A stretch of DNA of 64,000 nt from Candidatus Caldarchaeales archaeon. GTDB taxonomy: Archaea; Thermoproteota; Nitrososphaeria_A; Caldarchaeales; Wolframiiraptoraceae. Location of the stretch: positions 1 to 64,000 of the forward strand of contig JBCNVN010000004.1 of NCBI GenBank assembly GCA_039630055.1, given 5' to 3'. The notes under the pieces were generated by a model. The model did not search any database. It was not told the origin of the DNA and saw nothing but the letters and a program-made list of their open reading frames with translations. Shown in pieces: positions 15,983 through 43,241 of this stretch. Numbering within the stretch: the stretch's first letter is position 1; every line of letters starts with the position of its first letter. Both the position numbers and the translations under genes were made by a program.

Positions 15983-17521
15983 GTGATAAAAGTGAAGGCT
16001 GGAACTCCTATTCTCGAAGTGAGAGGAATAACGAAAAGATTTCCTGGAGGTGTTGTAGCTTTAGACCATGTAGATATCGAGATAAGGGCAGGTGAGATTC
16101 ATGCTATTCTAGGCGAGAATGGTGCTGGAAAAACTACCTTGATGAATATCTTGTTCGGAGTTCTACAACCCGATGAAGGAGAGATCTACGTTAATGGAAA
16201 AAAGGTCAGGTTTAAGTCTCCACTGGATGCCATGAATGTGGGAATAGGGATGGTTCATCAGTTCAGAAAGCTGATCCCAGCTCACACTGTAATTGAGAAT
16301 ATAATTCTTGGACATCCAAAGACGAAAAGCATCATCAACATGAAGAAGGCTAGGGATGAAGTTGAAGAACTATGTAAAAAATATGGTTTCAAAGTAGATC
16401 TTGATGCAAGAGTCTGGCAATTATCTGCTGGTGAGCAACAGGTGGTAGAGATATTGAGAGCACTTTATCGTGGTTCAAGAATACTTATCCTTGATGAGCC
16501 GACCTCTGTGCTAACCCCTCTAGAAATTGATGCTTTCTTGAACTCTCTGAAAGCCATGTCTAAGGAAGAGATCGCAACTATTCCATTCGTAACCCACAAG
16601 TTGCCTGAGGTATTCGCTGTAAGCGATAAGATCACGGTATTGAGGAGGGGAAAGGTCATTAAACATATTGAGACTAAGGATGCTACGATGAAAACTTTAG
16701 CAGAGTATATGGTTGGAAGAGAAGTACTATTCAAATTGGAGAAGCCGAGAGTAAGAATAGGAGAAGAAGTATTGAGAGTTGAGAAGCTTTCAGCTCTGAG
16801 TGATAAGGGGATTCCAGCTATCAAGGATGTATCATTCTCTATAAGGGAAGGAGAGATATTTGGGATCGCGGGCGTCAGTGGTAATGGTCAACAAGAATTG
16901 GCCGAAGTCATAGCTGGTCTCCGAAAACCAATCCAAGGAAGGGTTATATTCCGAGGTCAAGACATCACTAATGCATCTGTCTTGGATCGTATGAAGATGG
17001 GGATAGGATATATCCCGCCAGAACGTTTAGGAGTCGGAGTTATTGGAAGTTTTTCACTAGCTGATAATATCTTGATGAGCATCTATTTCGATAGCGAATT
17101 TTCCAGATTGGGTTTCTTAAAATATAGAGAAATAAGGAGATATGCTGAAAAGATCATCTCCGAGTATGAAATAGTGGCCCCAAGCATTTATACAAAAGCT
17201 GCACATCTATCGGGAGGAAATCTTCAAAGACTGATCTTGGGCAGAGTCATTCCTAGAACTTTGAAACTTCTAATTGCTAACTCGCCTACCGTCGGTCTAG
17301 ATATAGCTGCAACAGAAGATGTTAGAAGGAGGTTACTAGCATGTAAAGAAAAGGGCATGAGCATCCTCTTGATCTCTGAAGATCTAGAAGAGGTTTTAGA
17401 GTTGAGCGATAGAGTTGCGCCAATATATGAGGGAAGGTTTGTTAAGGTTCTTTCAGCTGAGGAGGCTAGAAAAGAAGAGGTGGGAGCGATGATGGCGGGC
17501 GCTCTTTCAGGAGGTGGATAG
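15983..17521 (+). CDS. Nucleoside/sugar (CUT2) ABC importer, double-domain ATPase
   Basis: GENGAGKT, GMVHQ, LDEPT, second domain GVSGNGQ and LSGGNLQ. Confidence 0.9.
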   Translation: MIKVKAGTPILEVRGITKRFPGGVVALDHVDIEIRAGEIHAILGENGAGKTTLMNILFGVLQPDEGEIYVNGKKVRFKSPLDAMNVGIGMVHQFRKLIPAHTVIENIILGHPKTKSIINMKKARDEVEELCKKYGFKVDLDARVWQLSAGEQQVVEILRALYRGSRILILDEPTSVLTPLEIDAFLNSLKAMSKEEIATIPFVTHKLPEVFAVSDKITVLRRGKVIKHIETKDATMKTLAEYMVGREVLFKLEKPRVRIGEEVLRVEKLSALSDKGIPAIKDVSFSIREGEIFGIAGVSGNGQQELAEVIAGLRKPIQGRVIFRGQDITNASVLDRMKMGIGYIPPERLGVGVIGSFSLADNILMSIYFDSEFSRLGFLKYREIRRYAEKIISEYEIVAPSIYTKAAHLSGGNLQRLILGRVIPRTLKLLIANSPTVGLDIAATEDVRRRLLACKEKGMSILLISEDLEEVLELSDRVAPIYEGRFVKVLSAEEARKEEVGAMMAGALSGGG

Positions 17522-18607
17522 ATGGTCTCTATACAGATTACAAAATTGAAACGTGAAAGAATAGTAGTATTGACAGGTAGAGAAGCTGTCTTAATATCTA
17601 TTTCTTCGCTTATTGTAGCTTTCATCATATTTAGTGGCTTCTTACTATTCGAGGGTGCTATGCCGACTGAAGCATATGGAAACATATTCGCATTTGCTTT
17701 CGATCCCAAGCTTGGGCTATCTACAACCCTCCACAGAGGATTCTTCATACTCTTCTCAACCTTAGCCTTTATAATCCCGATGTCAGCGGGGCTCTGGAAT
17801 ATTGGAATGGAAGGACAATTCTATCTTGGAACTATTGGAGCTTTCGCAGTCGCTTATAGTCTACCCAACCTCCACCCTGCACTTCTAATTTCATTGATGT
17901 TAATTGTAGGAGCGGTTTTCGGAGCGGGGTATGGTGCACTAGCAGGTTTCTTGAAAGGAAAGTTGAATGTAAATGAAGTCGTAGCAACTTTGATGTTAAA
18001 TAATATAGCCTTCTGGCTAGTCTACTTATTGACGGTTGGAGGTCCTTGGGCAGGTATTGCTGAATCGACTAGCCGTCCTCTTCCAGCCTCTGCCCATGCA
18101 CCAGTAATCTGGAATACGACTTTCACAGGATTCCTCGTAATCGGAATAGCTATACTACTCTATATCTTCCTAAAGTATTCTTCTATCGGATACCAGATCC
18201 GTGTTCTAGGGAATAGCCCAGTTGCAGCTAAACATATTGGAATAAGTGCTCCTAGATTATCGGTTCTAGTGATGGCGGTTGGTGGAGCGATAGCTGGACT
18301 CTCAGGATACCATATGTGGGCTGGAGATCCTGCCTTCTACATGATACCGAGGCCAGAGGCCTACAAAGCTATCGGCGACCTCACATACTGGGGGATACTG
18401 ATAGGATTAGTCTGTCTACTCAATCCCCTCGCAGCGATCCCATTCTCGATATTCATCGGCTCGATCTTGATAGGATCCACTGTCTTGGTTAGACGTCTAC
18501 GTCTACCCTTCGGTCTAGACGTCCTATTTCTAGGAATTATCTCTCTAACGTTTGTGGCCTTCCAATTCTTCCACAACTATAGAATTAGAAGGGTGAAGAG
18601 GGTGTAA
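17522..18607 (+). CDS. Nucleoside-type ABC permease 1
   Basis: GLWNIGMEGQ and NEVVATLMLN motifs. Confidence 0.88.
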   Translation: MVSIQITKLKRERIVVLTGREAVLISISSLIVAFIIFSGFLLFEGAMPTEAYGNIFAFAFDPKLGLSTTLHRGFFILFSTLAFIIPMSAGLWNIGMEGQFYLGTIGAFAVAYSLPNLHPALLISLMLIVGAVFGAGYGALAGFLKGKLNVNEVVATLMLNNIAFWLVYLLTVGGPWAGIAESTSRPLPASAHAPVIWNTTFTGFLVIGIAILLYIFLKYSSIGYQIRVLGNSPVAAKHIGISAPRLSVLVMAVGGAIAGLSGYHMWAGDPAFYMIPRPEAYKAIGDLTYWGILIGLVCLLNPLAAIPFSIFIGSILIGSTVLVRRLRLPFGLDVLFLGIISLTFVAFQFFHNYRIRRVKRV

Positions 18608-18610
18608 AAT

Positions 18611-19489
18611 ATGTGGCCATTTATAGTTAGATCGCTTGAGGTGGCCACGATTCTTCTACTTGCATCCATCGGAGAACTTTTAACTCAAAGATCGGGCGTT
18701 ATCAATGTCGGTATAGAAGGATTGATGCTACTAGGAGCAGCCTCTGGATTTCTAGCGGCCATAATTTGGGGCATTATCCCAGGATACCTAATAGGACTTC
18801 TTGTCGGAGCCTTATTCGGTCTACTTCACGCAATCTTCTCGATAACTCTGAGGGTAAACCAAGTGGTAAGCGGGATGGGTGTATGGCTCTTCGCCATGGG
18901 TTTCGTAACCTATTGGGCGGATAGATACTCTGGTCCACTACCGCCAGGGGTTGTTTCTATCCGTATCTACGGACTCTCACCGATATTCTTCATCGCTATC
19001 GCAATAGTCTTTATCATCTGGTTCATACTAACTAAAACCCACCTAGGGCTGAAGATAAGGTCTACCGGTGAGAATCCATTCGCAGCCGAGGTATCTGGAG
19101 TAAAAGTGATAAGAATAAGATACATGTGTACGATTATTGGTGGAGCGTTATCAGGCCTCGCGGGAGCATTTCTATCTCTAACCTATCTAGGAGTTTGGAG
19201 TCATCTCCCAACAAAAGGGTTAGGATGGATCGCATTTGCTCTCGTTATGTTCTCCCTATGGAGACCCTCAATACTTTCAGGCGGGGCCATACTCTTCGGC
19301 TTCGTATGGCAGTTCGCTATCTCACCTGAGACAATATATGCTGGGATACCGGCTCCTCTCCCGATACTAAGGATGCTTCCATTCATCATTACAATAATAC
19401 TTTTGATCATAATATCTTCAGAGAGATTTAGGAGAAGATGGTGGCTGGCTAAACCAGAAGCATTAGGTGTACCATATATAAAAGAATAG
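18611..19489 (+). CDS. Nucleoside-type ABC permease 2
   Basis: RSGVINVGIEG, NQVVSG, GENPFAA, GLGWIA, PEALGVPY motifs. Confidence 0.88.
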   Translation: MWPFIVRSLEVATILLLASIGELLTQRSGVINVGIEGLMLLGAASGFLAAIIWGIIPGYLIGLLVGALFGLLHAIFSITLRVNQVVSGMGVWLFAMGFVTYWADRYSGPLPPGVVSIRIYGLSPIFFIAIAIVFIIWFILTKTHLGLKIRSTGENPFAAEVSGVKVIRIRYMCTIIGGALSGLAGAFLSLTYLGVWSHLPTKGLGWIAFALVMFSLWRPSILSGGAILFGFVWQFAISPETIYAGIPAPLPILRMLPFIITIILLIIISSERFRRRWWLAKPEALGVPYIKE

Positions 19490-19591: not shown

Positions 19592-21037
19592 CTACTTGAC
19601 GAGTACTATACCATCTAGCTGGAAGTTGAGCTTTCCGAGAAGCCAATCATCTGTCGGCATAACTCCCGCCGGCTTAACAACTGTACCTTTTGGTGGTACA
19701 TCTAAACCTAGCTCAGGTATCGGCAGCCCTTCCCCACTACTGACTAGAGCATGTTCTGAGAATGGATCCCATGCACCGATAAGCATCTGCGTCCTCCTCG
19801 TCTCGATCATCTTCAATATATTCTCAGGGATCAAACGTTTGGCCTTCGGGCTTATGGCTTCAAGACCTATCTTGTTATCATTCTGAAGATCAACGGCAGG
19901 TAAGATCGTTTGTCCTGGGACAAATGGATTATCGGGTGGGAGAGAGATGTGATGATTCATTCCTAAGAAGATTAGTCTATCAGGATGCTTTGTACCTGCT
20001 AGATACTCCTTCAATATATGATAGAATAATACCTCCCATCTCGTATCAAATGAGACTGCTACTGTATCGGTAGTTCCCCAACCATAAAGCCCAACTATAT
20101 CAGAGTCTTTTCCAACGAACCATATCTTTCTTTCTTCAGCAACTTTGAGGGGTTCGACAGAGTCTGTGTAATGTGTGAGAACGTCGACTCCGAGATCAAC
20201 CAATGCATGTGAGACCTCTCTCTCCTTCGGTGGATCATACCACTCTCCAACGTATTTGATGTAAAGGGTAGCATCTGGATTAGCATCTTTTATCCCGAGA
20301 TTGAATGCCGCCATTCTTCTCCAATTCTGGACGCATGCTGGACCTACTGCAATTCCAATCTTGTTACTCTCAGTTATCGCTCCCGCAATCAATCCTTCTA
20401 GATACATTGCTTGATATTGTCTTATGAAGACTCTCAAGAAATTCCTTTGAGATGATATATCGCTTCCCACTATTCCGAGGAAATATACATCTGGATATTC
20501 TGGAGCTACTCTATGGAAAGATGGGACTGCTGCAGGCTCCCAGCTACCGAAAATAATGTTTGCTCCACCTACTGCTATCAAATCTTTAGCGGAAGAGATC
20601 GGGTCCTTACCCTTCAATACAACGCCTTCATCATATATATAATCAAACCATGGATAAAGTGTCTTCAACCTTTCTACTGCCTTTATCTGTCTACCATCCC
20701 ATGTCGAACCCTCTATATACCCACCTAGAACCATGCCCATGACAACCTTTAACCCCTTTGGAACCTCAGTTATCTTAGTCTCAGTACGCGTAACAGTACT
20801 AGTTACTGTAGTTGGTACAGTTACCGTAGTCGGTACAGTTACTGTGGCAGCGCCTACTGTGACTGTTCTTGTCTCCGTAAGAGTAGCAGGCGCCGCGGCG
20901 GTACTCCCTGCATAGTATCCTCCGACTCCTGCTACTATACCGGCGACGACTACTCCTGCAGCAACTTTTCCAGCTGTTGAGATAGCTTTCCTACGGGAAA
21001 GTTTTCTTAGTAATATTCTATCATCGCCTTCCTTCAT
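19592..21037 (-). CDS. BMP-family (nucleoside/nucleobase) substrate-binding protein with twin-arginine leader and Thr/Val-rich linker
   Basis: SRRKAI plus hydrophobic segment, TVTVPT repeats, YLEGLIAG..T..NKIG, AFNLG...NPDA, WYDP.KE. Confidence 0.8.
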   Translation of the reverse strand: MKEGDDRILLRKLSRRKAISTAGKVAAGVVVAGIVAGVGGYYAGSTAAAPATLTETRTVTVGAATVTVPTTVTVPTTVTSTVTRTETKITEVPKGLKVVMGMVLGGYIEGSTWDGRQIKAVERLKTLYPWFDYIYDEGVVLKGKDPISSAKDLIAVGGANIIFGSWEPAAVPSFHRVAPEYPDVYFLGIVGSDISSQRNFLRVFIRQYQAMYLEGLIAGAITESNKIGIAVGPACVQNWRRMAAFNLGIKDANPDATLYIKYVGEWYDPPKEREVSHALVDLGVDVLTHYTDSVEPLKVAEERKIWFVGKDSDIVGLYGWGTTDTVAVSFDTRWEVLFYHILKEYLAGTKHPDRLIFLGMNHHISLPPDNPFVPGQTILPAVDLQNDNKIGLEAISPKAKRLIPENILKMIETRRTQMLIGAWDPFSEHALVSSGEGLPIPELGLDVPPKGTVVKPAGVMPTDDWLLGKLNFQLDGIVLVK

Positions 21038-21278: not shown

Positions 21279-22094
21279 TTACTTTTCGTTTGCGAAAGCT
21301 ACTATTCTAGCAAAGGCAGATTCGCCATCTTGGAACTTGAATGGGAAGGCTCCTATTATACATCTTCTATTGACTACTTTGCTTATCTCTCCACCCAGGT
21401 TCTCAGCATGTAGCACCATGTCAGGGAAAAGTTCAAGATGCATCAACTGGTAGTTCTTAGGCCATGGCAGTACCTCATCTATCTTCTTCCCCCACTTCTT
21501 CTCAGCTTCAGCCACCAGGTCAGGCCTAGCTCTCCTGATAACTGTGTTGAGAGGATGGTCTGCAGACATTGCATCTACACCTATCCATTTTATCTTCATA
21601 TCTATACACCATCTTGCAAAGCTCTCATCGGGACCTGGATGCTTCACCATATATCTAACTTCATCTGGCTCTGTTCCACACCAAGCATACTTATGATATC
21701 CAGTATGTATTATGAGAATATCTCCCTTTTTGACCTCTATGCCTCCTTCTTTGGCAGCCTTCTTTATGGTCTCCGATGTATAGATATCGTAGTCTCCTAC
21801 GTAAGGAGATATATCTACTATTACTCCTTCTCCTACGAGATAGTCTTCGAGGGGGAGGCTTGCTATATCTTTTCCACCCGTTACGAAGTGCATTTGGCTA
21901 TCGAAGTGAGTCCCAAAGTGTAGTGAGGTCTCTATATATTGTGCGTTTACACCATGTTCTCCAAGCGTCTTTATCCAGTAGACCTTCATAGGTGGATACC
22001 ACATGAAGGGTGGTTGCTTCCAGCTCGTCGGTTGAGATAAGTCGTAAATCCTAACCCTGCTCCAATCTACTATCTTACTCCAATCCAAAACCAT
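21279..22094 (-). CDS. Cyclase-family metal-dependent amidohydrolase (kynurenine formamidase-like fold)
   Basis: HFGTHFD...H, GDILIIHTG, GVDAMSAD, ENL motifs. Confidence 0.85.
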   Translation of the reverse strand: MVLDWSKIVDWSRVRIYDLSQPTSWKQPPFMWYPPMKVYWIKTLGEHGVNAQYIETSLHFGTHFDSQMHFVTGGKDIASLPLEDYLVGEGVIVDISPYVGDYDIYTSETIKKAAKEGGIEVKKGDILIIHTGYHKYAWCGTEPDEVRYMVKHPGPDESFARWCIDMKIKWIGVDAMSADHPLNTVIRRARPDLVAEAEKKWGKKIDEVLPWPKNYQLMHLELFPDMVLHAENLGGEISKVVNRRCIIGAFPFKFQDGESAFARIVAFANEK

Positions 22095-22248: not shown

Positions 22249-22698
22249 ATGAAGTTTGAAGGTAAACTAAATTTGAGATCTCGGAGAGAGGATGTCTGGA
22301 ACTTTATATCAGAACCTGCTAAAGTTATTGAATGTGTCCCAGGCGTCGAAGAATACTCTCTCTCTGAAGGTAAGAGGATAACAGCAAGAGTTAAAGTATC
22401 TATCGGATTTATTAAAGGAACTTTCCATACCTCTAGCAGTGTAGTTGAAGAAGACCATAGTAACTATACCGCCAAGTTGAAATTAGGTGGTTCAGGTGCA
22501 GGAAGCGGTTTTGATGCTTTAGTAGACATAAAGCTAAACGATATAGATGGTGGTACTGAGATGGTCTGGAAGGCTGATGTAAATGTTTCAGGACCACTAG
22601 GAAGCTTAGCTAAACCTATGCTAGAAGGTTATGTAAAAAAGCTTGTAGATCAGCTTTTCGACTGTATTAAACAGAGAGTTGTAAGCTCAAGTATTTAA
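22249..22698 (+). CDS. coxG: CoxG/SRPBCC-family accessory protein
   Basis: VWNFISEP....CVPG, KVSIGFIKG; directly precedes the Mo-hydroxylase operon. Confidence 0.8.
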   Translation: MKFEGKLNLRSRREDVWNFISEPAKVIECVPGVEEYSLSEGKRITARVKVSIGFIKGTFHTSSSVVEEDHSNYTAKLKLGGSGAGSGFDALVDIKLNDIDGGTEMVWKADVNVSGPLGSLAKPMLEGYVKKLVDQLFDCIKQRVVSSSI

Positions 22699-22752: not shown

Positions 22753-25149
22753 TTGTCCTACAAGTATATTGGAAAACCCATTCCCCCTCAAGATGCATTC
22801 TATAAAGTTACTGGAACCGCCCAATATACTCTAGATATAGACCTTCCAGGAATGCTTTATTCTAAACTAGTTACCAGCACCGTACCCCATGCGAAGATAA
22901 AGAGGATTGATATAAGTAAGGCTGAAAAAGTTCCAGGAGTAGTCAAAGTCGTAGTAGGAAGAGATTTCCCTTACAGAGTTGGGATGTATGCTGGAGATAG
23001 AGATCTTCTAGCGATTGATAAGGTTAGATGGGTTGGCCACCCAGTAGCAGCCGTTATTGCAGAAGATCTAGAGGCTGCCGAGAAAGCAATAGATCTTGTT
23101 GATGTAGAATATGAAGAGCTGCCAGCAGTATTCGATCCATTAGAAGCTCTTAGACCTGATGCACCTTTAATCCATGAGAAGATGGAAGAATATAGACATT
23201 CTCCTGCGTTTAGACCCATACCTGGAACGAATATTGCAAATAAGTTCACGTTAGTTAAAGGTGATGTGGAGAAGGGTTTCAGAGAAGCGGACATAGTAAT
23301 CGAGGGACAATTTTACATACCTCATGTAAGTCATTCATACATGGAGGTTCAAAACGTTATTGCACATTATCATTTAGACGGAACCATAGAGATATGGACA
23401 AGCTGGCAGAATGTTGCTCCTATCAGGCAGATCATGGCCCTATCTCTAGGAATACCACACAACAAGATTATAGTTAGGATCCCTTATGTTGGAGGAGGGT
23501 TTGGAGGTAAAGCTGGTCTAGGATGGGAAGCTCTAGTGGCCATACTCTCTAAAGAGGCTGGATACAGACCTGTAAAACTTATCTTATCAAGAAGAGAACA
23601 GTTTACATCAGCTGCAGTTAGAGAAGGATTCTACGGATTTGCTAAAGCTGGATTCAAGAAAGATGGCAAGTTTATCGCTTACGATGTTAAATTCATATTA
23701 GATGCTGGAGCATACGGAGACTACACTGTTAACGTTGGTAGAGCAGTCGGCTACTCTGCTGATGGAAGCTACGAGATACCTAACATCAAAGTTGAATCTC
23801 TAACTGTTTACACGAATAAGATACCTACAACAGCTCTAAGAGGCTTTGGGTACCCTGAAAGCCACTGGGTTCTCGAACAGATTATGGATAGAGCAGCACA
23901 GAAGATCGGCTTGGATCCTGCAGAGATCAGGAGGATCAATCTAGTCAAGCCAGGTGTATCGGAGACGTGTACAGGTGAGAGGCTTAGAGAAGATGTTGGA
24001 GATCCTCAGAAAGTATTACAAACTTTACTAGAGGGGATAGAATGGGATAAGCCGATCGAAAGTCTGAAAGAACCATGGAGGATAAGGTCTAAAGGTTTAG
24101 CCCTATTCGTTAAAGGTCCAGCTCAGCCTCCGAATGCTTCCGCCTCGGCCATCTTAAAGTTTAATGAAGATGCTAGCGTAGACCTATTAGTCTCTACCGG
24201 TAACTTTGGGCAGGGAACTGTAACCGCTTTGATCCAGATCGTTGCAGAAGAGTTTGGACTACCATTAGAGAAGGTGAGGGTAGATTATATTAGAGATACC
24301 CATAAATCGGCTTATACTTGGCAGACTGTGGGAAGTAGAGGATTGTTCACAGATGGCATAGCTGTCTTGAGAGCTGTTGAAGATGCTAAGAAACAGATAT
24401 TCAAAGTGGCCTCTGAAGTCTTGAGGTGTCCAGAAGAACATCTTGAACTTGTAGATGGAGAAGTAAGAGTAAAGGGGAGACCATGGGAGAGGATACCTCT
24501 AAAAGATATAGTGATGGGCTATACTTATCCTAACGGCAACTCTATTGGAGGTCCGGTAATAGGTAGAGGCGTATTCATGTCCACCCATACCACATATCTC
24601 GATCCTGAAACAGGACAAGGAAATCCGACGATATTCCATACTTTTGGAGGTACAGCAGTAGAGGTTGAAATAAACTTGCTCACAGGAGAAGTCGAGGTGT
24701 TAAAGGCGGTACAGGTACTCGACCTGGGAAGAGTGATTAACCCACTACTAGTCAAACAACAGGTAAATGGAGGACTTCTAATGGGTTTAAGCATAGGATT
24801 ATATGAGCAGATAAAATTCGATGAGAGAGGATGGGTTATAAATCCCAACTTTACAAATTACTACCTAGTAAGAATAAAGGATATTCCTAGAGAAGTTATT
24901 AGAAAGTTTATTGAAACACCCCAGCTGGACGGTCCATATGGGGCGAGAGGGATCGGTGAGTTAACAATGATAGGGGTTGCTCCTGCTATAGCGAATGCAA
25001 TATTTAGAGCAACAGGTGTAAAAATAGATCGGCTTCCATTAAATCCGGAAAATGTTTGGAAGGCTCTCAATGAGCAGAGACCCGACCTAGTTAGTGAAGC
25101 TATGAATAAGTTTCTAAAATTGGAAGAGAAGGTAGAGGTGAGAATTTGA
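22753..25149 (+). CDS. Xanthine-dehydrogenase-family molybdopterin subunit (L), paralog 1
   Basis: KVTGTAQY, GGGFGGK, ALRGFG, QTVGSR, GARGIGE. Confidence 0.92.
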   Translation: MSYKYIGKPIPPQDAFYKVTGTAQYTLDIDLPGMLYSKLVTSTVPHAKIKRIDISKAEKVPGVVKVVVGRDFPYRVGMYAGDRDLLAIDKVRWVGHPVAAVIAEDLEAAEKAIDLVDVEYEELPAVFDPLEALRPDAPLIHEKMEEYRHSPAFRPIPGTNIANKFTLVKGDVEKGFREADIVIEGQFYIPHVSHSYMEVQNVIAHYHLDGTIEIWTSWQNVAPIRQIMALSLGIPHNKIIVRIPYVGGGFGGKAGLGWEALVAILSKEAGYRPVKLILSRREQFTSAAVREGFYGFAKAGFKKDGKFIAYDVKFILDAGAYGDYTVNVGRAVGYSADGSYEIPNIKVESLTVYTNKIPTTALRGFGYPESHWVLEQIMDRAAQKIGLDPAEIRRINLVKPGVSETCTGERLREDVGDPQKVLQTLLEGIEWDKPIESLKEPWRIRSKGLALFVKGPAQPPNASASAILKFNEDASVDLLVSTGNFGQGTVTALIQIVAEEFGLPLEKVRVDYIRDTHKSAYTWQTVGSRGLFTDGIAVLRAVEDAKKQIFKVASEVLRCPEEHLELVDGEVRVKGRPWERIPLKDIVMGYTYPNGNSIGGPVIGRGVFMSTHTTYLDPETGQGNPTIFHTFGGTAVEVEINLLTGEVEVLKAVQVLDLGRVINPLLVKQQVNGGLLMGLSIGLYEQIKFDERGWVINPNFTNYYLVRIKDIPREVIRKFIETPQLDGPYGARGIGELTMIGVAPAIANAIFRATGVKIDRLPLNPENVWKALNEQRPDLVSEAMNKFLKLEEKVEVRI

Positions 25150-26024
25150 GCTTCGGTTCTCCATACTTTACTCTACCGGAGTTTACCTATCATAAACCGA
25201 AGACTCTCAGTGAGGTCCTTGAGCTATTAGAGAGATATGGTGATGAAGCAAAGATCTTAGCTGGTGGAGTAGGCTTAATACCGTTTATGAAAGAAAGGCT
25301 TATCTCCCCTACACATGTCATAGATATAAAAGAGATATCTGAGTTGAAAAAACTTGAATATAGAAGAGGGGAAGGATTAACTATTGGCGCCACTATCACA
25401 TTCTCAGAGCTAGAATCATATCAGATAGTTAGGGAGAAGTACAAAGCTTTGTATCAAGCGGTAAAAATAGCTTCAGACAGTATAATAAGAAATAGAGCTA
25501 CATTGGTAGGAAATATATGCGAGGCTATACCATGGGTTGATGGCCCACCTCCATTAATAGCCTATGATGCTGAAGTCGAGATTAGAAGCTTGGATAAGGT
25601 TAGAAGAGTGTTAGTCGCAGACTTCATTAAAGGCCCAGTAGAGACCGATCTAAAACCTGGAGAGATCGTTACCTCTATAAAGATACCTGATATACCTGAT
25701 GATGCAAGAAGTGGATTCATAAAATTTAACACAGGATCGGAGTTCGCTCTAGCAACTATCTCTGCTTATTTGGTGATGAAGAAGGAGAAGAGAGATGTGA
25801 GGCTAGTCTATGGAGCCATCTCTACTAAACCTATAAGAGCTTTTGAAGCTGAGAAAATCCTTCAAGGCGAAGACGACATAAGAAATCTTATACGTTTAGC
25901 AGCTGTAAAGGCTTCTGAGGAGGTTGAAGTCGTCTCAGACGTACTGGCTTCTGAAGAATATAGAAGACATCTCGTCAAAGTACTTACCATGAAGATTTTG
26001 ATGGATTTGGTGGAGGATGATTAA
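25146..26024 (+). CDS. Xanthine-dehydrogenase-family FAD subunit (M), paralog 1
   Basis: AKILAGG, IRNRATLVGN, SEEYRRHL. Confidence 0.9.
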   Translation: MSFGSPYFTLPEFTYHKPKTLSEVLELLERYGDEAKILAGGVGLIPFMKERLISPTHVIDIKEISELKKLEYRRGEGLTIGATITFSELESYQIVREKYKALYQAVKIASDSIIRNRATLVGNICEAIPWVDGPPPLIAYDAEVEIRSLDKVRRVLVADFIKGPVETDLKPGEIVTSIKIPDIPDDARSGFIKFNTGSEFALATISAYLVMKKEKRDVRLVYGAISTKPIRAFEAEKILQGEDDIRNLIRLAAVKASEEVEVVSDVLASEEYRRHLVKVLTMKILMDLVEDD

Positions 26025-28332: not shown

Positions 28333-28444
28333 TCGTCTTAGATTGGATTACGCTATGGAATAAATATTTCTAAGACATAGTCTTAATTCAGATCCCATTT
28401 ACATGAGATATAAAGTCTTTTAACTCTAGAAGAATGATGAGGGC

Positions 28445-36450: not shown

Positions 36451-36459
36451 TAATCCACC

Positions 36460-36867
36460 CTACTCAATCTCTATTAAACTATCGCCTGCATTAACAGAAG
36501 CTCCTTCTTGAACATATATCCGCTTCACTCTACCAGATGTAGGAGAATATATCATATTCTCCATCTTCATACTCTCCAATACTATTACAGGATCTCCAGC
36601 TTTAACCGGATCACCTTCCCTACATTTTATCGATACTATAGTTCCGGGGATCGGTGCCCTCACCAGACCTCGTGCTTTTACTGTCTCAACCCTTGCCTCT
36701 GGAATAGGAGTTGGAGATATTCTCTTTTCCTCTCGTTGGGTTGGAATAACTGTAGGTGGAGGTGTCATAGCTACTTCTTCTACGCCAACCTCCTCAACCT
36801 CAACTTCGAATACTTTACCTTCTACTGTCACTCGGAACCTTCTCTTCAATTCAATGCACCTCTCCAT
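36460..36867 (-). CDS. mmdC: Biotin carrier protein (decarboxylase gamma subunit)
   Basis: LESMKMEN biotinylation motif, Pro-rich linker, N-terminal FRVTVEGKVFEVEVEE. Confidence 0.88.
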   Translation of the reverse strand: MERCIELKRRFRVTVEGKVFEVEVEEVGVEEVAMTPPPTVIPTQREEKRISPTPIPEARVETVKARGLVRAPIPGTIVSIKCREGDPVKAGDPVIVLESMKMENMIYSPTSGRVKRIYVQEGASVNAGDSLIEIE

Positions 36868-37183
36868 CCCGTAAAGAATTTAGGATACTTGAAATCTTCC
36901 ATATTGATGGAGGAGTTGGTGAGCCCTCTTTTATATGAACAGTTTTTGTAGTCTGAGATAAAGATGCGATTACAGCGCTAATTCCTGCGATTACTTCAAG
37001 GCTTTCTCCGACGATCTTCTTTACTTCGATTTCAGGTTTTTCTTTGATTTCTACCGGTCTATGATATGTGGATCGTCGAAGTAGATAGATCATTATTAGT
37101 AGGATAAGGACCCCTCCTGATACGTATAGCAGCCAGTTCAAGGTAAAGACTAGACTTAAATCGATATAATTAGTTGAGACCAC
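36851..37183 (-). CDS. Decarboxylase membrane-anchor subunit (OadG/MmdD-like)
   Basis: Single N-terminal TM, IAGISAVIA helix, SIWK motif; first gene of the unit with mmdC and mmdB. Confidence 0.65.
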   Translation of the reverse strand: MVSTNYIDLSLVFTLNWLLYVSGGVLILLIMIYLLRRSTYHRPVEIKEKPEIEVKKIVGESLEVIAGISAVIASLSQTTKTVHIKEGSPTPPSIWKISSILNSLRDGEVH

Positions 37184-37384: not shown

Positions 37385-38152
37385 ATGTATGAAAACGTGA
37401 TGGAAGAAGTAGGATTAAGAGATTCAAAGATCTATTTTTACGACGTTGTCAATTCCACTCAAGACTTAGCAAAAAGTCTCGGGTCGGTTGAAGAATTCAC
37501 CGTGGTGGTAGCTAGAGAGCAACGCAGAGGTCGAGGGAGGATGGGGAGAGAATGGTACTCTCCTCTAGGTGGCCTATGGTTTACGATAATCCTATACCCT
37601 AAAACGCCTATCTCAACTTATGCCATCCTTTCCTTATTAAGCTCATTATCGGTAGTCAGAACAATTGAAGACGTTACTGGACTTAAACCTTATATTAAGT
37701 GGCCAAATGACGTATATTTGAATGGAAAGAAGGTTGCAGGAGTACTTGTAGAGTCAGATGTTATTGGAGAACTGATGATGAAAGCTTTTGTCGGGATAGG
37801 AGTGAACCTGAATTTTCGAATAGAATCAATACCTGAAAGACTTAGAGAAAGTGCAACAACAATCTTTGAAGAATATGGCAAGATGGTAGATACTGGAACC
37901 TTCTTATTAAAAATCCTACAAGAGTTAAAGAAGTATTATGGAGTATATAGAATCGGTTCCCATCAAAGATTAATCGAAGAGGTAAAGAGTAAGATGAACA
38001 TGATTGGAAGAAAGGTCATAGTCTCTCTGGGTCATAGAGAATTGGTGGGCATGGTGAGAGACCTTGAGATGAATGGAAACCTAATCATCGAATCTTCAAA
38101 TGTAAAGAATATTTTAAATCCCTCAGAGATCAAAAGACTAGAACTTATCTAG
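37385..38152 (+). CDS. birA: Biotin protein ligase
   Basis: STQD, Q..GRGR.GR.W.SP, KWPND, KVAGVL, GIGVN. Confidence 0.92.
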   Translation: MYENVMEEVGLRDSKIYFYDVVNSTQDLAKSLGSVEEFTVVVAREQRRGRGRMGREWYSPLGGLWFTIILYPKTPISTYAILSLLSSLSVVRTIEDVTGLKPYIKWPNDVYLNGKKVAGVLVESDVIGELMMKAFVGIGVNLNFRIESIPERLRESATTIFEEYGKMVDTGTFLLKILQELKKYYGVYRIGSHQRLIEEVKSKMNMIGRKVIVSLGHRELVGMVRDLEMNGNLIIESSNVKNILNPSEIKRLELI

Positions 38153-38712
38153 CTTCTAGCTCTATATACTATCTCTGAGAAATCTTTCCTCTTTAAGAGA
38201 TATAGTATTACTGCTATCTTCAGCCCGTCTCCTGGAAGAAATATTAACGCACCCATCGTTATCCCTCTACTTATTGCATCAGACAATACTATTCCAGAGA
38301 AATTTGATAACCAGAAGATCAACCATGGAACACCAAGTCCATATATAACCAATTCAGCGATGATACAAGCGGTCAATGCCTTGATAATCCGCTTATCACT
38401 CATCGGATCATAAAGTATACCTGTGATAGCTGCTGCTATTGGAAAAGATATTAGATATCCCGTAGTTGGACCTAAAAATGTTGTGAAACCTCCTCTAAAA
38501 CCTGCGAAGACAGGTAGGCCTGCTAAACCCATACCAAGATATATCATCTGGGATAGAAATCCAGTCTTGTATCCTCCAACTATCCCGGAAAGCATTATGA
38601 ATAATGTCTGGAGGGTTATGGGAACTGGACCGATATAGAAAGCTATCTGGGCTCCGAGGAATGTAAAGACTGCAAAGATGCTTGATAAAACGATTAGACG
38701 GGTTTTAATCAT
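38149..38712 (-). CDS. bioY: Biotin transporter BioY
   Basis: PVPITLQT, GLAGLPVFAG, GPTTGYL, PGDGLK. Confidence 0.92.
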   Translation of the reverse strand: MIKTRLIVLSSIFAVFTFLGAQIAFYIGPVPITLQTLFIMLSGIVGGYKTGFLSQMIYLGMGLAGLPVFAGFRGGFTTFLGPTTGYLISFPIAAAITGILYDPMSDKRIIKALTACIIAELVIYGLGVPWLIFWLSNFSGIVLSDAISRGITMGALIFLPGDGLKIAVILYLLKRKDFSEIVYRARS

Positions 38713-38728: not shown

Positions 38729-39199
38729 TTATTTTTCTTTTTTAGCGACGCTCAATATTGCATCTATTATCGGTTTGTATCCTGTACATCTACAGAGAAG
38801 ACCATTCAAGGCTTCTACAACTTCTTCTCTTGATGGTTTTGGATTATGATTGATGAGCCAGTGACCTACTATCAAGAACGCTGGTGTACAGAATCCGCAT
38901 TGTAGTGCTCCATGCTCTATGAATGCTCTCTGTAATGGTGTTAGCTCACCATCCCTAGCCAAACCCTCAACGGTAACAATCTCAGAACCATCAACCTCAA
39001 CAGCAAGAACAAGACAAGACTTTACAGGCTCACCATCCAATAAAACTGTACATAGTCCGCAATCCCCTCTTTCGCATGCTTTCTTCGTTCCTTTCAATTT
39101 AAGCCCATCCCTAATCAACCATAAGAGTGTCTTATTTGATTCTACTTCAAAGGTCTTCTCCACCCCATTTATCTTGAAGCTTATCCTTCTTTTCTCCAA
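38729..39199 (-). CDS. Xanthine-dehydrogenase-family [2Fe-2S] subunit (S), paralog 2
   Basis: CERGDCGLC..SC, QCGFC, CRCTGY. Confidence 0.92.
   Translation of the reverse strand: MEKRRISFKINGVEKTFEVESNKTLLWLIRDGLKLKGTKKACERGDCGLCTVLLDGEPVKSCLVLAVEVDGSEIVTVEGLARDGELTPLQRAFIEHGALQCGFCTPAFLIVGHWLINHNPKPSREEVVEALNGLLCRCTGYKPIIDAILSVAKKEK
38876..39026 (-). repeat. 151-bp perfect inverted repeat, copy B (inside S subunit 2)
   Basis: Reverse complement of 26197-26347. Confidence 0.95.
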
Positions 39200-40060
39200 C
39201 TAGACCACCTCCATAATCTCTTTCAACAATCTTCTCGTCAAGACTCTCACAAGGTTCAACCTATACTCTGCACTTCCTCTAACATCTGATATAGGTGAGA
39301 CCCTTTCTGAAGCGGCCTGAACTGCTCTTTCTATCTTATCCTCCAATGTTCCCGGTTTTGCGAAAGCTTGTTCTGCTTCCCTAACCCTGAGAGGTGTCGG
39401 GGCCACACTAGCGTATGCTAGCCGGATCCTTATATCACCATCTTCCCTGTATCCCAATCCAGCTACTCCGACAACGGCTAGATCTTCACTCCAAACCCTC
39501 ATCATCTTCAAGTATCTTCCATAGTACTTTCGAGGTGGCTCAGGTATGAATACTTCCTTCACTATCTCCCATGGTTTTAACACAGTCTTCTTAACTCCTG
39601 TAAAGAAGTTTTCTAGAGGTATCTCTCGAGAATTTTCTCTACTTATGATTCTTACTTTTGCATCTAAGACTAGAAGTGAGGGTGAACTATCTCCTGCAGG
39701 GCTAGCAGTGCATATATTTCCGACGAGAGTTGCTCTATTTCTTAAGATCACATCACCGATGGTTTTCACAGCTTCCCATAAGACTGGATATTTATTCTTG
39801 ACGACCTGAGACTCTAGTATCTTCTTAAAAGTAACTGTGGCACCAATCGTTAATCCTTCTCCCTCTTTATAATCAAGTTTATTTAATTCTTTGATCTTCT
39901 TGATGTCGATTATGTGTTTAGCCTTCTCTAGTCTCTCCCTCAATGATACGATCAAGTCAGTGCCACCAGCAAGAATCTTCGCATCATCTGCATATCTCTC
40001 AAGAATCTCGAACAACTCTTCAAGAGTTCGTGGAGAAAAATAACTAAATCTTGGAAGCAT
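39200..40060 (-). CDS. Xanthine-dehydrogenase-family FAD subunit (M), paralog 2
   Basis: AGGTDL, RNRATLVGNIC.ASPAGD, PISDVRGSAEYR. Confidence 0.92.
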   Translation of the reverse strand: MLPRFSYFSPRTLEELFEILERYADDAKILAGGTDLIVSLRERLEKAKHIIDIKKIKELNKLDYKEGEGLTIGATVTFKKILESQVVKNKYPVLWEAVKTIGDVILRNRATLVGNICTASPAGDSSPSLLVLDAKVRIISRENSREIPLENFFTGVKKTVLKPWEIVKEVFIPEPPRKYYGRYLKMMRVWSEDLAVVGVAGLGYREDGDIRIRLAYASVAPTPLRVREAEQAFAKPGTLEDKIERAVQAASERVSPISDVRGSAEYRLNLVRVLTRRLLKEIMEVV

Positions 40061-40066
40061 CTTTTC

Positions 40067-42385
40067 TCACCTCTTCTTATTTATTGCTTTCCATATATTC
40101 TCGAAACTTATCGGTAGATTATTGATATTGACCCCCGTTGCGTGGAAGATTGCATTGGCGACAGCGGTCGGGACAGATAACATGGATAGTTCTCCAACCC
40201 CTCTAGCTCCATAAGGACCATCGCTTTGAGGATTCTCTATAACTACGATCTGGTGTTCTTCAGGAATATCTCCAGCTCTTGCAATCTTATAGTCTGTAAG
40301 ATTAGGGTTTAACATCTTCCCATTTCCATCATATTTATACTCTTCCCAAATACCTAGACTGAGAGATTGAATGCATCCTCCGATTATCTGCCCTTCAACT
40401 AGAAGTGGATTGATGGCTTTTCCTACATCGAATGCGGATACTAGTTTTAGGATCTTTACCTCACCTGTCTCGATATCGAGTTCGATCTCTACAGCTTGTG
40501 CTCCGAAAGTCCACTTGAGAGCAGGATATCCTTGCCCTGTCTCCGGGTCGAGATATGATAGTCTACTTCCTACATAGTATCCACGTCCAATCAGTGGACC
40601 TCCAATGGTATTTCCATTTGGATATACATATCCAGCCGCTATATCTTTTAATTGTAGGCTCCACTCAGGTCTACCCTTAACCATTATTTTCTCATCTTCT
40701 ATGACTAGGTCATCTTTAGGAACTCTAAGTACCTGGGAAGCTACCTCTAATATCTGTTCTTTAATATCTCTTGCAGCTCTAATAACCGCTCTCCCCTCCA
40801 TGAATAAGTTCCTGCTAGCTACCGTCTGCCAAGAATATGGTGTCACATCTGTATGCCTAAATGGTACAACTTTTATCTTCTCTACTGGAACGTTCAACTC
40901 TTCTGCAGCCATCTGAGCGAGAGCGGTAACCGTTCCCTGACCTATCTCGGTAACCCCGACAGAGATCAAGAAGGTTCCATCTTCATTTAATTTTATTATA
41001 GCAGAGGATGCAGCATTAGGAGGCATCGCAGGAGCCTTCCAAAGTGCAGCAACACCCTTCGCTCTCAGCTTATTTCCGCCAACTGATACTGGGCGGGTTC
41101 CCCATCCAATCTTATCAGCCACTGCTCTAATACACTGGTCTATCCTACCAGCGTCTTCTCTTAACCTCTCTCCAGTAGGCGTTGTTAGACCGGGTAGAAG
41201 AGCATTCTTTAATCTAAATTCAACCGGATCCATACCTATCTCTGCTGCTATGATCTCTATCTGTCTTTCAATAGCCCATAGGAACTCAAAGTGTCCGAAA
41301 CCTCTAAACGCTGTACCCCATGGATGGTTAGTATACACCGTTAAGGATTCGGCTTCTAGATTAGGTACGAAGTATGGTCCAGTACATGAATATCCTGCAG
41401 CTCTAGCTATGTTCACTCCATAATCTGCATAGGCTCCTGCATCGAATATGTAAAGTATCTTTTCAGCCATGATCTTTCCATCTCTGGTTACACCCGTTTT
41501 TATTCTTCCATAGAATCCCTGTCTAACTGGAGCCGTCATAAACTGCTCCTCACGTGTTAACTCAAGCATCACAGGTCTGTACCCTGCTTTCTTGGATAGG
41601 AGAACTACAAGCGGTTCAAAGTTTATTCCTGCCTTTCCTCCAAAACCTCCTCCAACATAGGGAACATAAACAGATATCTTATGTAATGGTATTCCGAGCG
41701 AGTAGCCCAGTATGTACCTAATGGCGAAAGGGCTCTGAGCAGATGTCCATATCTTGATGCTTCCATCTTTTAGATATTGACCTATGCAGACATGGGGTTC
41801 CATTGGAACATGGGAGACCTGAGGCATAAGAAACTCGTTCTCAACTATTACCTCACTCTCTCTAAAGCCTTCATCTAAGTTCCCCTTCTTCACTATAAAT
41901 CTATTAGCTATGTTTGTCCCTGGAATAGGGTTGAAGGCTGGAGAATGAGCATACTCTCCTAGTTCTTCATGAACTAGAGGAGAGTCAGGCTTTAATGCAT
42001 CCCTTACATCTAATACAGGTTTCAGCGGATCATATTCTACCTTTATCTGCATAACGGCTTCCTCTGCTGTCTCCAGATCCTCAGCGACAACTGCTGCGAC
42101 AGGTTCACCAACCCATCTAACCTTTTTCTTCGCCAAGATATTTCTATCATTTACATATAACCCTACTCGGAATGGGAAGTCTTCACCGGTGGCAATGGTT
42201 ACAACGTTTGGCATCTTCAAAGCATTACTGAAATCTATTGATTTGATCCTTGCATGGGCGTATGGGCTTAAAAGCAACTTTGCATACAGCATTCCCGGAA
42301 GCTCGATATCTCCAGTGTACTCAGCTGAACCAGTAATTTTTTCTATCGCATCTATTCTTTGAATAGGTTTGCCAACATACTTCAC
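40067..42385 (-). CDS. Xanthine-dehydrogenase-family molybdopterin subunit (L), paralog 2
   Basis: TSAQSP, GGGFGGK, AFRGFG, QTVASR, GARGVGE. Confidence 0.92.
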   Translation of the reverse strand: MKYVGKPIQRIDAIEKITGSAEYTGDIELPGMLYAKLLLSPYAHARIKSIDFSNALKMPNVVTIATGEDFPFRVGLYVNDRNILAKKKVRWVGEPVAAVVAEDLETAEEAVMQIKVEYDPLKPVLDVRDALKPDSPLVHEELGEYAHSPAFNPIPGTNIANRFIVKKGNLDEGFRESEVIVENEFLMPQVSHVPMEPHVCIGQYLKDGSIKIWTSAQSPFAIRYILGYSLGIPLHKISVYVPYVGGGFGGKAGINFEPLVVLLSKKAGYRPVMLELTREEQFMTAPVRQGFYGRIKTGVTRDGKIMAEKILYIFDAGAYADYGVNIARAAGYSCTGPYFVPNLEAESLTVYTNHPWGTAFRGFGHFEFLWAIERQIEIIAAEIGMDPVEFRLKNALLPGLTTPTGERLREDAGRIDQCIRAVADKIGWGTRPVSVGGNKLRAKGVAALWKAPAMPPNAASSAIIKLNEDGTFLISVGVTEIGQGTVTALAQMAAEELNVPVEKIKVVPFRHTDVTPYSWQTVASRNLFMEGRAVIRAARDIKEQILEVASQVLRVPKDDLVIEDEKIMVKGRPEWSLQLKDIAAGYVYPNGNTIGGPLIGRGYYVGSRLSYLDPETGQGYPALKWTFGAQAVEIELDIETGEVKILKLVSAFDVGKAINPLLVEGQIIGGCIQSLSLGIWEEYKYDGNGKMLNPNLTDYKIARAGDIPEEHQIVVIENPQSDGPYGARGVGELSMLSVPTAVANAIFHATGVNINNLPISFENIWKAINKKR

Positions 42386-42500
42386 TTATCATCACCCTCC
42401 TAATAATTTTTTACATCTTCAAATCTCTAAACCTCAATATATCTCTTCACTCTCCATATTTTATCGAAAAATAATTATAGGGTAGGATAAGATTGAGGTT

Positions 42501-43241
42501 TCAGAATTCTATCTCGAATGTTGAAGTCGGTTTTAGAGGTATAGTCTTATTGAGCAAATCTTGGGGAACAGGTCTTTCACCCATAAGACCACGTTCTAGT
42601 AGAGATGGTTTAACAGACTTGTTCCACTGTTCTTTTGTTATATAGTATACTCTTGCTCCTCCAAGCTCATGTTGTACTTCGGGCCATGGCTTTGTTACAT
42701 GTTGAAGTCTAAAGCCCATTCTAAAGCCGAAGGGACTTTCAAAAGTGGCCCACCATTCATTTACGCCAACTATATCGAATGCATGCTCTACCTTTGCTGC
42801 ATAGAGAAATATCCCAAGCCTCTCGGCACGTTTAAAGACTATCGTATGGAGGCTTATACAGATATTCTCATTATAGTATCGATGGTTGACGAGCCCCATC
42901 AATTCTCCATCTTTATTAGTTGCTACTATCACGTATCCATCCTTTAACCTATTCTGTGACCATGCCAATATCTCTGAATAAGTTCTTACGGCGACGAGGT
43001 GGTAAAAGTCTTTATCGTATTTGTGGTCGACCAATTGTTTCAGAGTTTGGAGCATAGCTGGTGCCTCATCTTTAGTTGCAGGTCGAACAATTATCGGCTC
43101 GCCACTTTTCAATCTATATATCTTGGGTGGGAAGGGTTTCTGGAATCTTTCATCGGGTGGAGCACCTCTTAGAAATTCTTCAATCTCATCTACTCCAAAC
43201 TTAAATTCTTCGAAAGAGATAGGTACAACTGGCTTAACCAT
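42501..43241 (-). CDS. GNAT-like N-acyltransferase-fold protein
   Basis: LKSGEPIIVRPAT..E, VIVA...GELMG pattern of GNAT strands; divergent family. Confidence 0.55.
   Translation of the reverse strand: MVKPVVPISFEEFKFGVDEIEEFLRGAPPDERFQKPFPPKIYRLKSGEPIIVRPATKDEAPAMLQTLKQLVDHKYDKDFYHLVAVRTYSEILAWSQNRLKDGYVIVATNKDGELMGLVNHRYYNENICISLHTIVFKRAERLGIFLYAAKVEHAFDIVGVNEWWATFESPFGFRMGFRLQHVTKPWPEVQHELGGARVYYITKEQWNKSVKPSLLERGLMGERPVPQDLLNKTIPLKPTSTFEIEF

Follow-up and report, generated by a model that had tools for sequence, protein, structure and literature searches.

In a 64,000-nucleotide window of contig JBCNVN010000004.1 (positions 1 to 64,000 of the forward strand) from a Candidatus Caldarchaeales archaeon, the genes between positions 15983 and 43241 form an island whose core is a BMP-type ABC importer, a cyclase-family metal amidohydrolase, xanthine dehydrogenase (XDH)-family hydroxylases with CoxG, the three subunits AllF, AllG and AllH, and a GNAT-fold protein of 246 residues, orf246. 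This module recurs across phyla, and its link to an acyl-CoA carboxyltransferase, which in the window belongs to a putative Na+-pumping decarboxylase, is more than chance. As a tentative explanation that in our estimate falls somewhat short of probable, we propose that the island would act as a single locus for breaking down an imported N-heterocycle of the nucleobase type, with uracil and/or thymine the most plausible substrate, by a variant of the oxidative (barbiturate) pyrimidine pathway that conserves energy. The source genome, G000, is an archaeal metagenome-assembled genome (MAG) of 1.54 Mb, 92% complete, and the window is part of an 83.8-kb contig; below, G-numbers denote genomes and L-numbers loci fetched around homologues. 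A previous annotation made from the letters and open reading frames (ORFs) of this DNA (the sequence-only reading) had proposed oxidative thymine/uracil catabolism coupled to such a decarboxylase and to methylcitrate enzymes. Every gene family that it named was recovered here by ORF calls, Pfam and NCBIfam; it had not singled out CoxG, a MoaD-like gene or the final ORF, orf246.

A module shared across phyla

Relatives of AllG were collected in two scans that took one genome per species: searching with the single protein yielded 39 loci, and a profile scan yielded at least 572 relatives, of which the best 80 were kept, for 118 loci in total. Proteins of the window and seeds from other loci were mapped onto these loci by tblastn, and counts were taken from the 81 loci of at least 12 kb. 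Next to AllG we found AllF in 73 of the 81, the cyclase in 60 and the L subunit of an XDH-family enzyme in 50. Less frequent neighbours were orf246 (22/81), CoxG (18/81), a CN-hydrolase (17/81), a family III CoA-transferase (15/81), carbamate kinase (11/81), a carboxyltransferase (9/81) and an amidase (7/81). No homologue of E. coli AllA, AllC, AllD or AllE was a neighbour in any of the 81, and none was found in the 118 mapped loci or in G000. AllH is under-detected by tblastn; Pfam finds it wherever inspected. Loci with the module span Caldarchaeales, Nitrososphaerales, Anaerolineae, Spirochaetota, Bacillota, Thermotogota and others, and an AllF-AllG-cyclase-XDH operon is present in Anaerolineae, Spirochaetota, Bacillota, Thermotogota and Rokubacteria-labelled and other MAGs. 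Most of those inspected among the at least 572 AllG relatives are of this cyclase-XDH type, and three cultured bacteria carry versions of the cluster (Alkaliphilus transvaalensis ATCC 700919, L144; Lutispora saccharofermentans m25, L046; and Thermomicrobium sp. CFH 73360, L100). Thus, the importer, cyclase, XDH-family enzymes and AllFGH, which the sequence-only reading had treated as one unit, do constitute a conserved module. The nearest public AllG relatives come from hot-spring MAGs of Candidatus Geocrenenecus and other Caldarchaeales. Five Geocrenenecus-type loci out of the 39 from the single-protein scan (L021, L022, L023, L025 and L048; fetched anew as L174-L178) repeat the full gene order of the island, L022 without the PrpB/PrpD pair described below.

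All three AllFGH subunits are encoded together on the minus strand of the window. AllF/FdrA (26695-28332), which resembles the alpha subunit of succinyl-CoA synthetase and carries CoA_binding and Ligase_CoA domains (PF02629 and PF00549), scores 425 bits against the NF004760 cut-off of 433; AllH (DUF2877; 28786-29715) matches PF11392 with 73.9 bits and AllG (DUF1116; 29699-30967) matches PF06545 with 284 bits. Identities to the E. coli proteins are 33% for AllF/FdrA, 44% for AllG/YlbE and 27% for AllH/YlbF. According to the accessible text of Kim and Kim (PMC11326118), the purified AllF-AllG-AllH of E. coli catalyses, without CoA, the interconversion of two pairs of compounds, oxalurate with phosphate and oxamate with carbamoyl phosphate; the KM reported for oxamate is 36.9 mM, and allFGH lies in an operon with carbamate kinase. 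Because the assayed reaction proceeds without CoA and carbamate kinase recurs in 11 of the 81 clusters, the direct formation of methylmalonyl-CoA by FdrA, as the sequence-only reading had it, is unlikely. Carbamate kinase scores above the arcC cut-off in L074 and L122; the window has none, and G000 has a fragment at the end of contig C23. Urease was looked for in G000 and not found. When the leaves of an AllG tree are read in order, the E. coli protein lies among 11 consecutive ones, of which none is linked to a cyclase.

Between AllF and AllH lies a MoaD/ThiS-like small protein (28445-28831, minus strand; TIGR01687, 52.6 bits, cut-off 49.5) that ends in Gly-Gly-Gly and probably starts at an internal Met near 28738. 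MoaD/SAMP-like homologues adjoin the module in five further archaeal loci (L069, L074, L087, L173 and L179). The protein may carry sulfur for the molybdenum cofactor, or have some other role.

The importer comprises a fused double ATPase (15983-17521) and two BPD_transp_2 permeases (17522-18607 and 18611-19489), all identified by Pfam on the plus strand, and a BMP/PnrA-family substrate-binding protein on the minus strand (19592-21037; PF02608, 98 bits), which has an N-terminal membrane anchor followed by a Thr/Val-rich linker. Homologues of the importer occur inside AllG clusters of Nitrososphaerales, Anaerolineae and others. Among solved chains the binding protein is closest to 3s99_A and to AtzT (6pi5_A), both with E values of about 1e-20; the AtzT crystal structure has guanine bound (accessible text of PMC6834077). 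Xan_ur_permease genes lie in ten related clusters (L043, L046, L051, L087, L108, L117, L123, L129, L148 and L162). Since the binding protein is AtzT-like and permeases of the xanthine/uracil family are frequent neighbours, the imported compound is probably a free base or a similar heterocycle. The cyclase (21279-22094, minus strand; PF04199, 121 bits) has the motif HFGTHFDSQMH, and we propose it as the putative ring-opening enzyme. Searches of solved structures with it returned weak matches only, the best at E 7e-7 to 1r61_A, and gave no clue to its substrate.

Matches in Pfam and NCBIfam identify CoxG (22249-22698) and two XDH-family enzymes. XDH1 lies with CoxG on the plus strand (L subunit 22753-25149, FAD subunit 25146-26024, 2Fe-2S subunit 26027-26515) and XDH2 on the minus strand (2Fe-2S subunit 38729-39199, FAD subunit 39200-40060, L subunit 40067-42385); their L subunits are 53% identical. 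Orthologues of the XDH1 L subunit (62-88% identity) adjoin AllF/AllG in Caldarchaeales and Nitrososphaerales, and orthologues of the XDH2 L subunit (74-76%) lie in the AllFGH clusters of G040 and G048. Two distinct groups of L subunits serve the module in different lineages, one with GGGFGGKAG and RGFG and the other with GGGFGPKIM and RGAGR. The second group, with (Y/V)RGAGR, was seen at AllF-AllG-cyclase operons in L042, L043, L064, L065, L093, L094, L100, L106 and others; we take this motif to be the signature of the 'form II' CoxL group, proteins of long-uncertain substrate. The residue following GGGFGGK is Ala in both XDH1 and XDH2, Gln in E. coli XdhA and Leu in PaoC. In xanthine dehydrogenase the purine-binding active-site residues are presumably Glu802 and Arg880 of the bovine enzyme. 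The arginine of FRGFG was considered as the equivalent of Arg880 and rejected: it sits 109 residues past the Ala that follows GGGFGGK and is, by the bovine numbering as we assume it, Arg912, and it therefore carries no information on purine binding. Two more XDH-family sets are encoded elsewhere in G000 (C12:136446-138689 and C18:12829-15162), one of them with XdhC and MocA-like genes, which brings the 1.5-Mb genome to four such enzymes.

At the right end of the island, orf246 (42501-43241, minus strand) matches no Pfam family at E <= 1e-5. An AlphaFold2 model built on a 13-sequence alignment has a pLDDT of 84, and Foldseek against the PDB gave 299 matches at E <= 0.001, the best being GNAT acyltransferases with E values from 4e-7 and TM scores (target) of 0.5-0.63. 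Arg138 and Gly143 are invariant across the 13 sequences. Its neighbours by language model are unnamed 'hypothetical' clusters of Nitrososphaerota and Chloroflexota, a minority with Acetyltransf_1. We compared its distribution with those of the CN-hydrolase and the amidase in the 60 cyclase-positive loci. Twenty had orf246 alone, 16 the CN-hydrolase alone, 7 the amidase alone and 17 none of the three; in no locus did two occur together. The 17 include four Geocrenenecus-type loci in which orf246 lies beyond the fetched flank. A CoA-transferase accompanied either hydrolase (CN-hydrolase or amidase) in 12 of 23 loci and orf246 in none of 20. The exchange is visible between close Nitrososphaerota loci, where L049 has cyclase, CoA-transferase and amidase and L034 and L086 have orf246, cyclase and carboxyltransferase. 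The simplest reading, which we infer from this pattern, is that orf246 would stand in for the hydrolase and the CoA-transferase together and convert the amide released by AllFGH into a CoA thioester; that it acts as a plain amidase is equally allowed. A thiolase-like gene (Thiolase_N plus Thiolase_C_1) was seen near an orf246 homologue in L116, L129 and L160 and directly adjoining one in L159, all Spirochaetota, and near the CoA-transferase in L110 (Anaerolineae); it may be a further consumer of the proposed thioester.

Literature searches found no description of the cluster; the supplementary figures of PMC12625717, which may bear on the nitrifier-related loci, were outside their reach. The accessible text of that paper mentions allFGHK with bmpA-nupABC for nitrifier MAGs. 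We found no AmoA in the five cluster-bearing Nitrososphaerota genomes, in a search whose positive control was also silent. Searches on oxamate carbamoyltransferase and FdrA returned only E. coli work and a floodplain study, and the passages of PMC9246946 and PMC10547907 located by term gave no mention of the cluster.

Linkage to a carboxyltransferase and a decarboxylase

The remaining block of the island begins with a carboxyltransferase (33769-35352, plus strand), a clear member of the general PccB/MmdA family (PF01039, 655 bits) that misses the cut-off of the MmdA subfamily (TIGR01117, 782 bits against 998.8); its nearest solved chains are 1vrg_A and 1x0u_A. On the minus strand follow the Na+-pumping carboxybiotin decarboxylase OadB (35347-36450; TIGR01109, 378 bits, cut-off 190.6), a biotin carboxyl carrier protein (BCCP; 36460-36867; PF00364) with the biotinyl-lysine motif SMKM, and orf110 (36851-37183), a protein of 110 residues with one hydrophobic stretch and no family in Pfam or NCBIfam. 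The biotin ligase BirA (37385-38152, plus strand; TIGR00121, 172 bits, cut-off 83) and the biotin transporter BioY (38149-38712, minus strand; PF02632, 135 bits) complete the block, BioY being the final gene of the minus-strand run orf246-XDH2-BioY. No biotin carboxylase was found in G000, nor any match to methylmalonyl-CoA mutase, a B12 domain or the epimerase. Consequently, the sole biotin enzyme of this genome is a decarboxylase without the usual source of its substrate.

The carboxyltransferase is the only Carboxyl_trans gene that we found in each of G000, G040, G048, G054 and G045, and in every case it lies at most 7 kb from AllG. These genomes represent four genera and three families (G054 is a third genus of the same family, G045 belongs to another family), and in the last four the PccB/MmdA-family gene sits inside the AllFGH-cyclase-XDH cluster. 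Among 61 relatives from the order, 14 had both AllG and the carboxyltransferase, 6 AllG only, 6 the carboxyltransferase only and 35 neither; of the 6 with AllG only, one genome is 59% complete and one has a mere fragment. In 10 of the 14 genomes with both, the two genes are at most 10 kb apart, a distance that by our own estimate a single-copy gene would show by chance in about 1% of 1.6-Mb genomes. Similar neighbourhoods exist farther away. In a Desulfurococcaceae-labelled MAG (L087), OadB, BCCP, OAD-gamma and the carboxyltransferase lie about 5-6 kb from orf246-AllG-AllH-cyclase, with a xanthine/uracil permease between the two sets. In a Bathyarchaeia MAG (L179), BirA, carboxyltransferase, OadB and BCCP directly adjoin MoaD-cyclase-CoxG-XDH. 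The module also has a carboxyltransferase next to it in one locus of Anaerolineae and in two of Nitrososphaerota. Directly upstream of FdrA-AllG-cyclase-CN-hydrolase-permease-PucR, Lutispora carries genes for a family III CoA-transferase and for a methylmalonyl-CoA epimerase that scores 126 bits on TIGR03081 (cut-off 115). Methylmalonyl-CoA mutase adjoins AllH in L033 and L040, and in L074 it adjoins the carboxyltransferase and carbamate kinase. Gene orders vary between lineages and the neighbourhood is kept. These results indicate that the link of the carboxyltransferase/decarboxylase to the module is more than chance. A short form of the carboxyltransferase (467-487 residues, 37-43% identical to that of the window) was noted in the clusters of G040, G048, G054 and L173. 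In the genomes with this form no OadB was seen; biotin carboxylase was not seen in G040 and G048 and is present in G054.

The pump itself follows the module less closely. AllG was found in 20 and OadB in 9 of the 61 genomes; the 6 with both all belong to the genus of the window, and OadB is limited to 2 of the 12 genera sampled. Thus, of the coupling to a Na+-pumping decarboxylase claimed by the sequence-only reading, the tie between carboxyltransferase and module stands, while OadB was not found in 14 of the 20 AllG-positive relatives.

The PrpB/PrpD pair is more local still. PrpB (31133-32062, plus strand) is a methylisocitrate lyase by TIGR02317 (410 bits, cut-off 354). The protein that follows it (32050-33411, plus strand) has the MmgE/PrpD Pfam domains; against the PrpD equivalog models it reaches at most 212 bits where cut-offs are at least 458, and the model behind that best score has its cut-off at 950. 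Both genes stand between AllG and the carboxyltransferase; they diverge from AllG and share their strand with MmdA. Within the genus, L022 and the 97%-complete genome G002 lack the pair; in a Chloroflexota locus (L043), PrpD-PrpB adjoins the importer and AllF-AllG. The single citrate synthase of G000 is on another contig. The proposed methylcitrate coupling keeps a PrpB above its cut-off and within the island, and loses support from a PrpD that is below all cut-offs and that, in each of the six genomes from other genera in which PrpD and AllG both occur, is unlinked to AllG. We read the pair as a sensible, genus-local sink for propionyl-CoA and not as a defining part of the pathway.

A possible pyrimidine route and its alternatives

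In the route that we favour, the base would be taken up by the BMP-ABC importer, and XDH1 and/or XDH2 would hydroxylate its ring with water to (5-methyl)barbiturate. The cyclase-family hydrolase would then open this ring to N-carbamoyl-(methyl)malonamate, that is, ureido(methyl)malonate, the homologue of oxalurate with one more carbon. Phosphorolysis of this acyl-urea by AllFGH would yield carbamoyl phosphate and (methyl)malonamate, and carbamate kinase could convert the former to ATP, NH3 and CO2. The amide would become (methyl)malonyl-CoA, here through orf246 and in other lineages through an amidase or CN-hydrolase with a family III CoA-transferase. MmdA, BCCP and OadB would decarboxylate the thioester and pump Na+, with biotin supplied via BirA and BioY, and propionyl-CoA would enter a methylcitrate route via PrpD, PrpB and the single citrate synthase. 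We infer all of these steps, and thymine or uracil as the presumed substrate, from what was computed: gene identities, linkage, the pattern of alternative genes, and a genome in which no other sources or sinks were found. The thymine series would give methylmalonyl units, a better match to the neighbouring carboxyltransferase, epimerase and mutase genes than a purine-to-oxalurate route offers. Compared with the single pathway of the sequence-only reading, the module and its linkage to a (methyl)malonyl-CoA-type carboxyltransferase are retained, and the acyl-CoA step assigned to FdrA gives way to a transcarbamoylation followed by a separate thioester-forming step. A wider claim would be that the module amounts to an oxygen-independent pyrimidine fermentation, widespread in anaerobic bacteria and thermophilic archaea, with ring oxidation by means of water, opening by the cyclase, carbamoyl phosphate giving one ATP, a GNAT-fold enzyme turning (methyl)malonamate and CoA into (methyl)malonyl-CoA and ammonia without ATP, and decarboxylation driving a sodium pump; taken as a whole, we consider this rather unlikely.

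Several observations weigh against the pyrimidine route. We know of no precedent for a GNAT protein that works from amide to thioester. The only AllFGH that has been assayed acts on oxalurate, and the carbamate kinase, CoA-transferase III and amidase homologues of G000 lie on other contigs in unrelated contexts. Neither L subunit reaches the cut-off of 780 for xanthine dehydrogenase (NF043082; XDH1 498 bits, XDH2 567 bits), other equivalogs are likewise below cut-off, and the nearest solved relative of both is 4-hydroxybenzoyl-CoA reductase, which bears on substrate specificity. The carboxyltransferase and AllG are on separate contigs in 4 of the 14 genomes with both (G050, G060, G051 and G053); G044, G052 and G056 have the carboxyltransferase without AllG, and G036 and G039, of another genus, have an Mmd-BirA-BioY module without it. 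AllG occurred in just 1 of 49 ordinary MmdA loci, which had BCCP in 38, OadB in 28, mutase in 15 and epimerase in 9; this background came from a scan with the short carboxyltransferase that otherwise returned a Caldarchaeum MAG (L173) and the Geocrenenecus loci. PrpD is present in 27 of the 61 genomes, 15 of them AllG-negative. Finally, genes were detected by simple ORF calls and tblastn, and the relatives are not independent samples.

The same module and its coupling to an acyl-CoA carboxyltransferase could instead act on another N-heterocycle (a purine-derived ring, a hydantoin or imidazolone, or another cyclic ureide) whose ring-opened acyl-urea would also leave a dicarboxylate monoamide. 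This we regard as doubtful, though a serious candidate. The module is served by two quite different groups of L subunits; tandem pairs of cyclases, seen in many bacterial clusters, would be explained by a bicyclic substrate; and PucR-type regulators (8 of the 81 loci) together with the guanine-binding relatives of the BMP protein point to purines as much as to pyrimidines. The CoA-transferases of the clusters score closest to succinate-glutarate, mesaconate and oxalate enzymes, all below cut-off. However, the carboxyltransferase, epimerase and mutase neighbours suggest a malonyl or methylmalonyl skeleton, which no purine route known to us would supply. Among nucleobases, its most direct source is the C4-C5-C6 portion of the pyrimidine ring (accessible text of PMC3758960).

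A purine-to-oxalurate route, the main alternative named in the sequence-only reading, would let XDH, cyclase and AllFGH end in carbamoyl phosphate and oxamate and would make Mmd/OadB/BirA/BioY and PrpB/PrpD unrelated housekeeping neighbours. Oxalurate is indeed the sole proven substrate of AllFGH, the Mmd-BirA-BioY set of G036 and G039, the narrow range of OadB and the unlinked PrpD are all as this route would have it, and the family III CoA-transferases include oxalate enzymes, the clostridial ones reaching 386 of 522 bits on the oxalate model. We nevertheless judge it quite unlikely, as it leaves the carboxyltransferase, epimerase and mutase without a role. The single-copy carboxyltransferase is within the cluster in four genera and three families, pumps lie near or adjoin the module in two further archaeal lineages, the Lutispora cluster has an epimerase, AllA, AllC, AllD and AllE homologues were not found in the 118 loci or in G000, and G000 offers no other evident source of the decarboxylase substrate. 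Nor was an oxalyl-CoA-decarboxylase-type TPP enzyme found in Pfam scans of related-locus flanks (93, 56, 18 and 89 ORFs), where the sole TPP match was a transketolase in L121. An oxalate route via the CoA-transferase was considered and is unsupported, since no oxalyl-CoA decarboxylase-type gene was among the scanned neighbours. Nicotinate fermentation, which combines an XDH-type enzyme, a B12 mutase and a PrpB-like lyase, was set aside; it offers no ureide for AllFGH. That three or four independent operons without a common pathway came to lie side by side in the island by chance is very unlikely. The directions of its operons do alternate, and a site between replication genes and beside a tRNA is one where unrelated genes can gather; the recurrence of importer, cyclase, XDH and AllFGH across phyla and the linkage of the carboxyltransferase speak against it.

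Setting of the island and comparison with known systems

To the left, the island is bordered by a tRNA-Arg(CCG) gene (12602-12693), whose 92 nt leave enough room for an intron. Between it and the importer lie a PadR regulator and an ABC-2 exporter (ATPase and permease; 13261-15785, plus strand; Pfam and NCBIfam). A similar PadR-ABC2 pair stands immediately 5' of cyclase-FdrA-AllG in a Desulfurococcales-labelled MAG (L039, positions 4285 to about 7000); therefore the island may begin at 13261, with this pair as its left extension. The public sequencing runs listed for positions 26695-36694 were DNA runs only, two of them perhaps from the source sample. Replication genes occupy both flanks (3529-11929 and 43360-48224): PolB, a Hel308-like helicase and an intein-bearing MCM on one, and Orc1/Cdc6, the large subunit of RFC and an intein-bearing small subunit of RFC on the other. 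Farther along, an ORF at 55369-56646 has a weak match to the actin family (PF00022, E 1.4e-12) and is presumably an archaeal actin homologue.

If the proposed pathway is correct, it would assign a function to a module common to many genomes (at least 572 AllG relatives) and give the oxamic transcarbamylase family a wider role in the catabolism of acyl-ureas. Necromass is rich in nucleobases, and anaerobes would gain a way to draw energy from them. The pathway would also explain an otherwise orphan Na+-pumping decarboxylase in archaea without methylmalonyl-CoA mutase, and possibly a new reaction for a GNAT-fold protein. Since three cultured bacteria carry the cluster, the idea is open to direct testing.

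Parts of the island resemble known systems to different degrees. Its PrpB, above the equivalog cut-off, and the adjacent PrpD-family protein recall the methylcitrate cycle (PrpC, PrpD, Acn and PrpB), but the island has no PrpC and its PrpD is below the curated cut-offs. Na+-translocating methylmalonyl-CoA decarboxylases are of the Veillonella/Propionigenium type, and Malonomonas has a malonate decarboxylase; like these, the island encodes a carboxyltransferase alpha subunit, an OadB-type beta subunit, a BCCP with an MKM motif and a small membrane subunit. In contrast to them, its alpha subunit falls below the TIGR01117 cut-off and orf110 matches no delta or gamma family; the usual partners in bacterial MmdA loci, moreover, include the mutase, present in 15 of 49, and the epimerase, present in 9, and G000 showed neither. 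With the E. coli AllFGH oxamic transcarbamylase and AllK the island shares the FdrA/DUF1116/DUF2877 trio, and carbamate kinase recurs in related clusters. Unlike the allantoin branch of E. coli, it has no allB, allC, allD or allE neighbours and has instead the cyclase, XDH-family enzymes, a GNAT-fold protein or amidase, and the carboxyltransferase. The closest likeness in chemistry would be to the oxidative pyrimidine pathway of Rhodococcus and its relatives, with uracil/thymine dehydrogenase, barbiturase and ureidomalonase. In this known, rare bacterial pathway, as the accessible text of PMC3758960 gives it, pyrimidines are hydroxylated to barbiturate, hydrolysis opens the barbiturate ring to ureidomalonate (3-oxo-3-ureidopropanoate), and loss of the ureido group from the malonyl unit leaves malonate and urea. 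The island, whose relatives are carried mostly by anaerobes and thermophilic archaea, has a cyclase-family hydrolase in the position of barbiturase. No match to PF09663, the AtzD/TrzD-type barbiturase family, was found in G000, a weak negative in view of a control that was silent in 14 of 14 genomes. AllFGH and carbamate kinase would replace ureidomalonase and the release of urea, and the carbon would leave as a CoA thioester bound for a Na+-pumping decarboxylase, not as free malonate.

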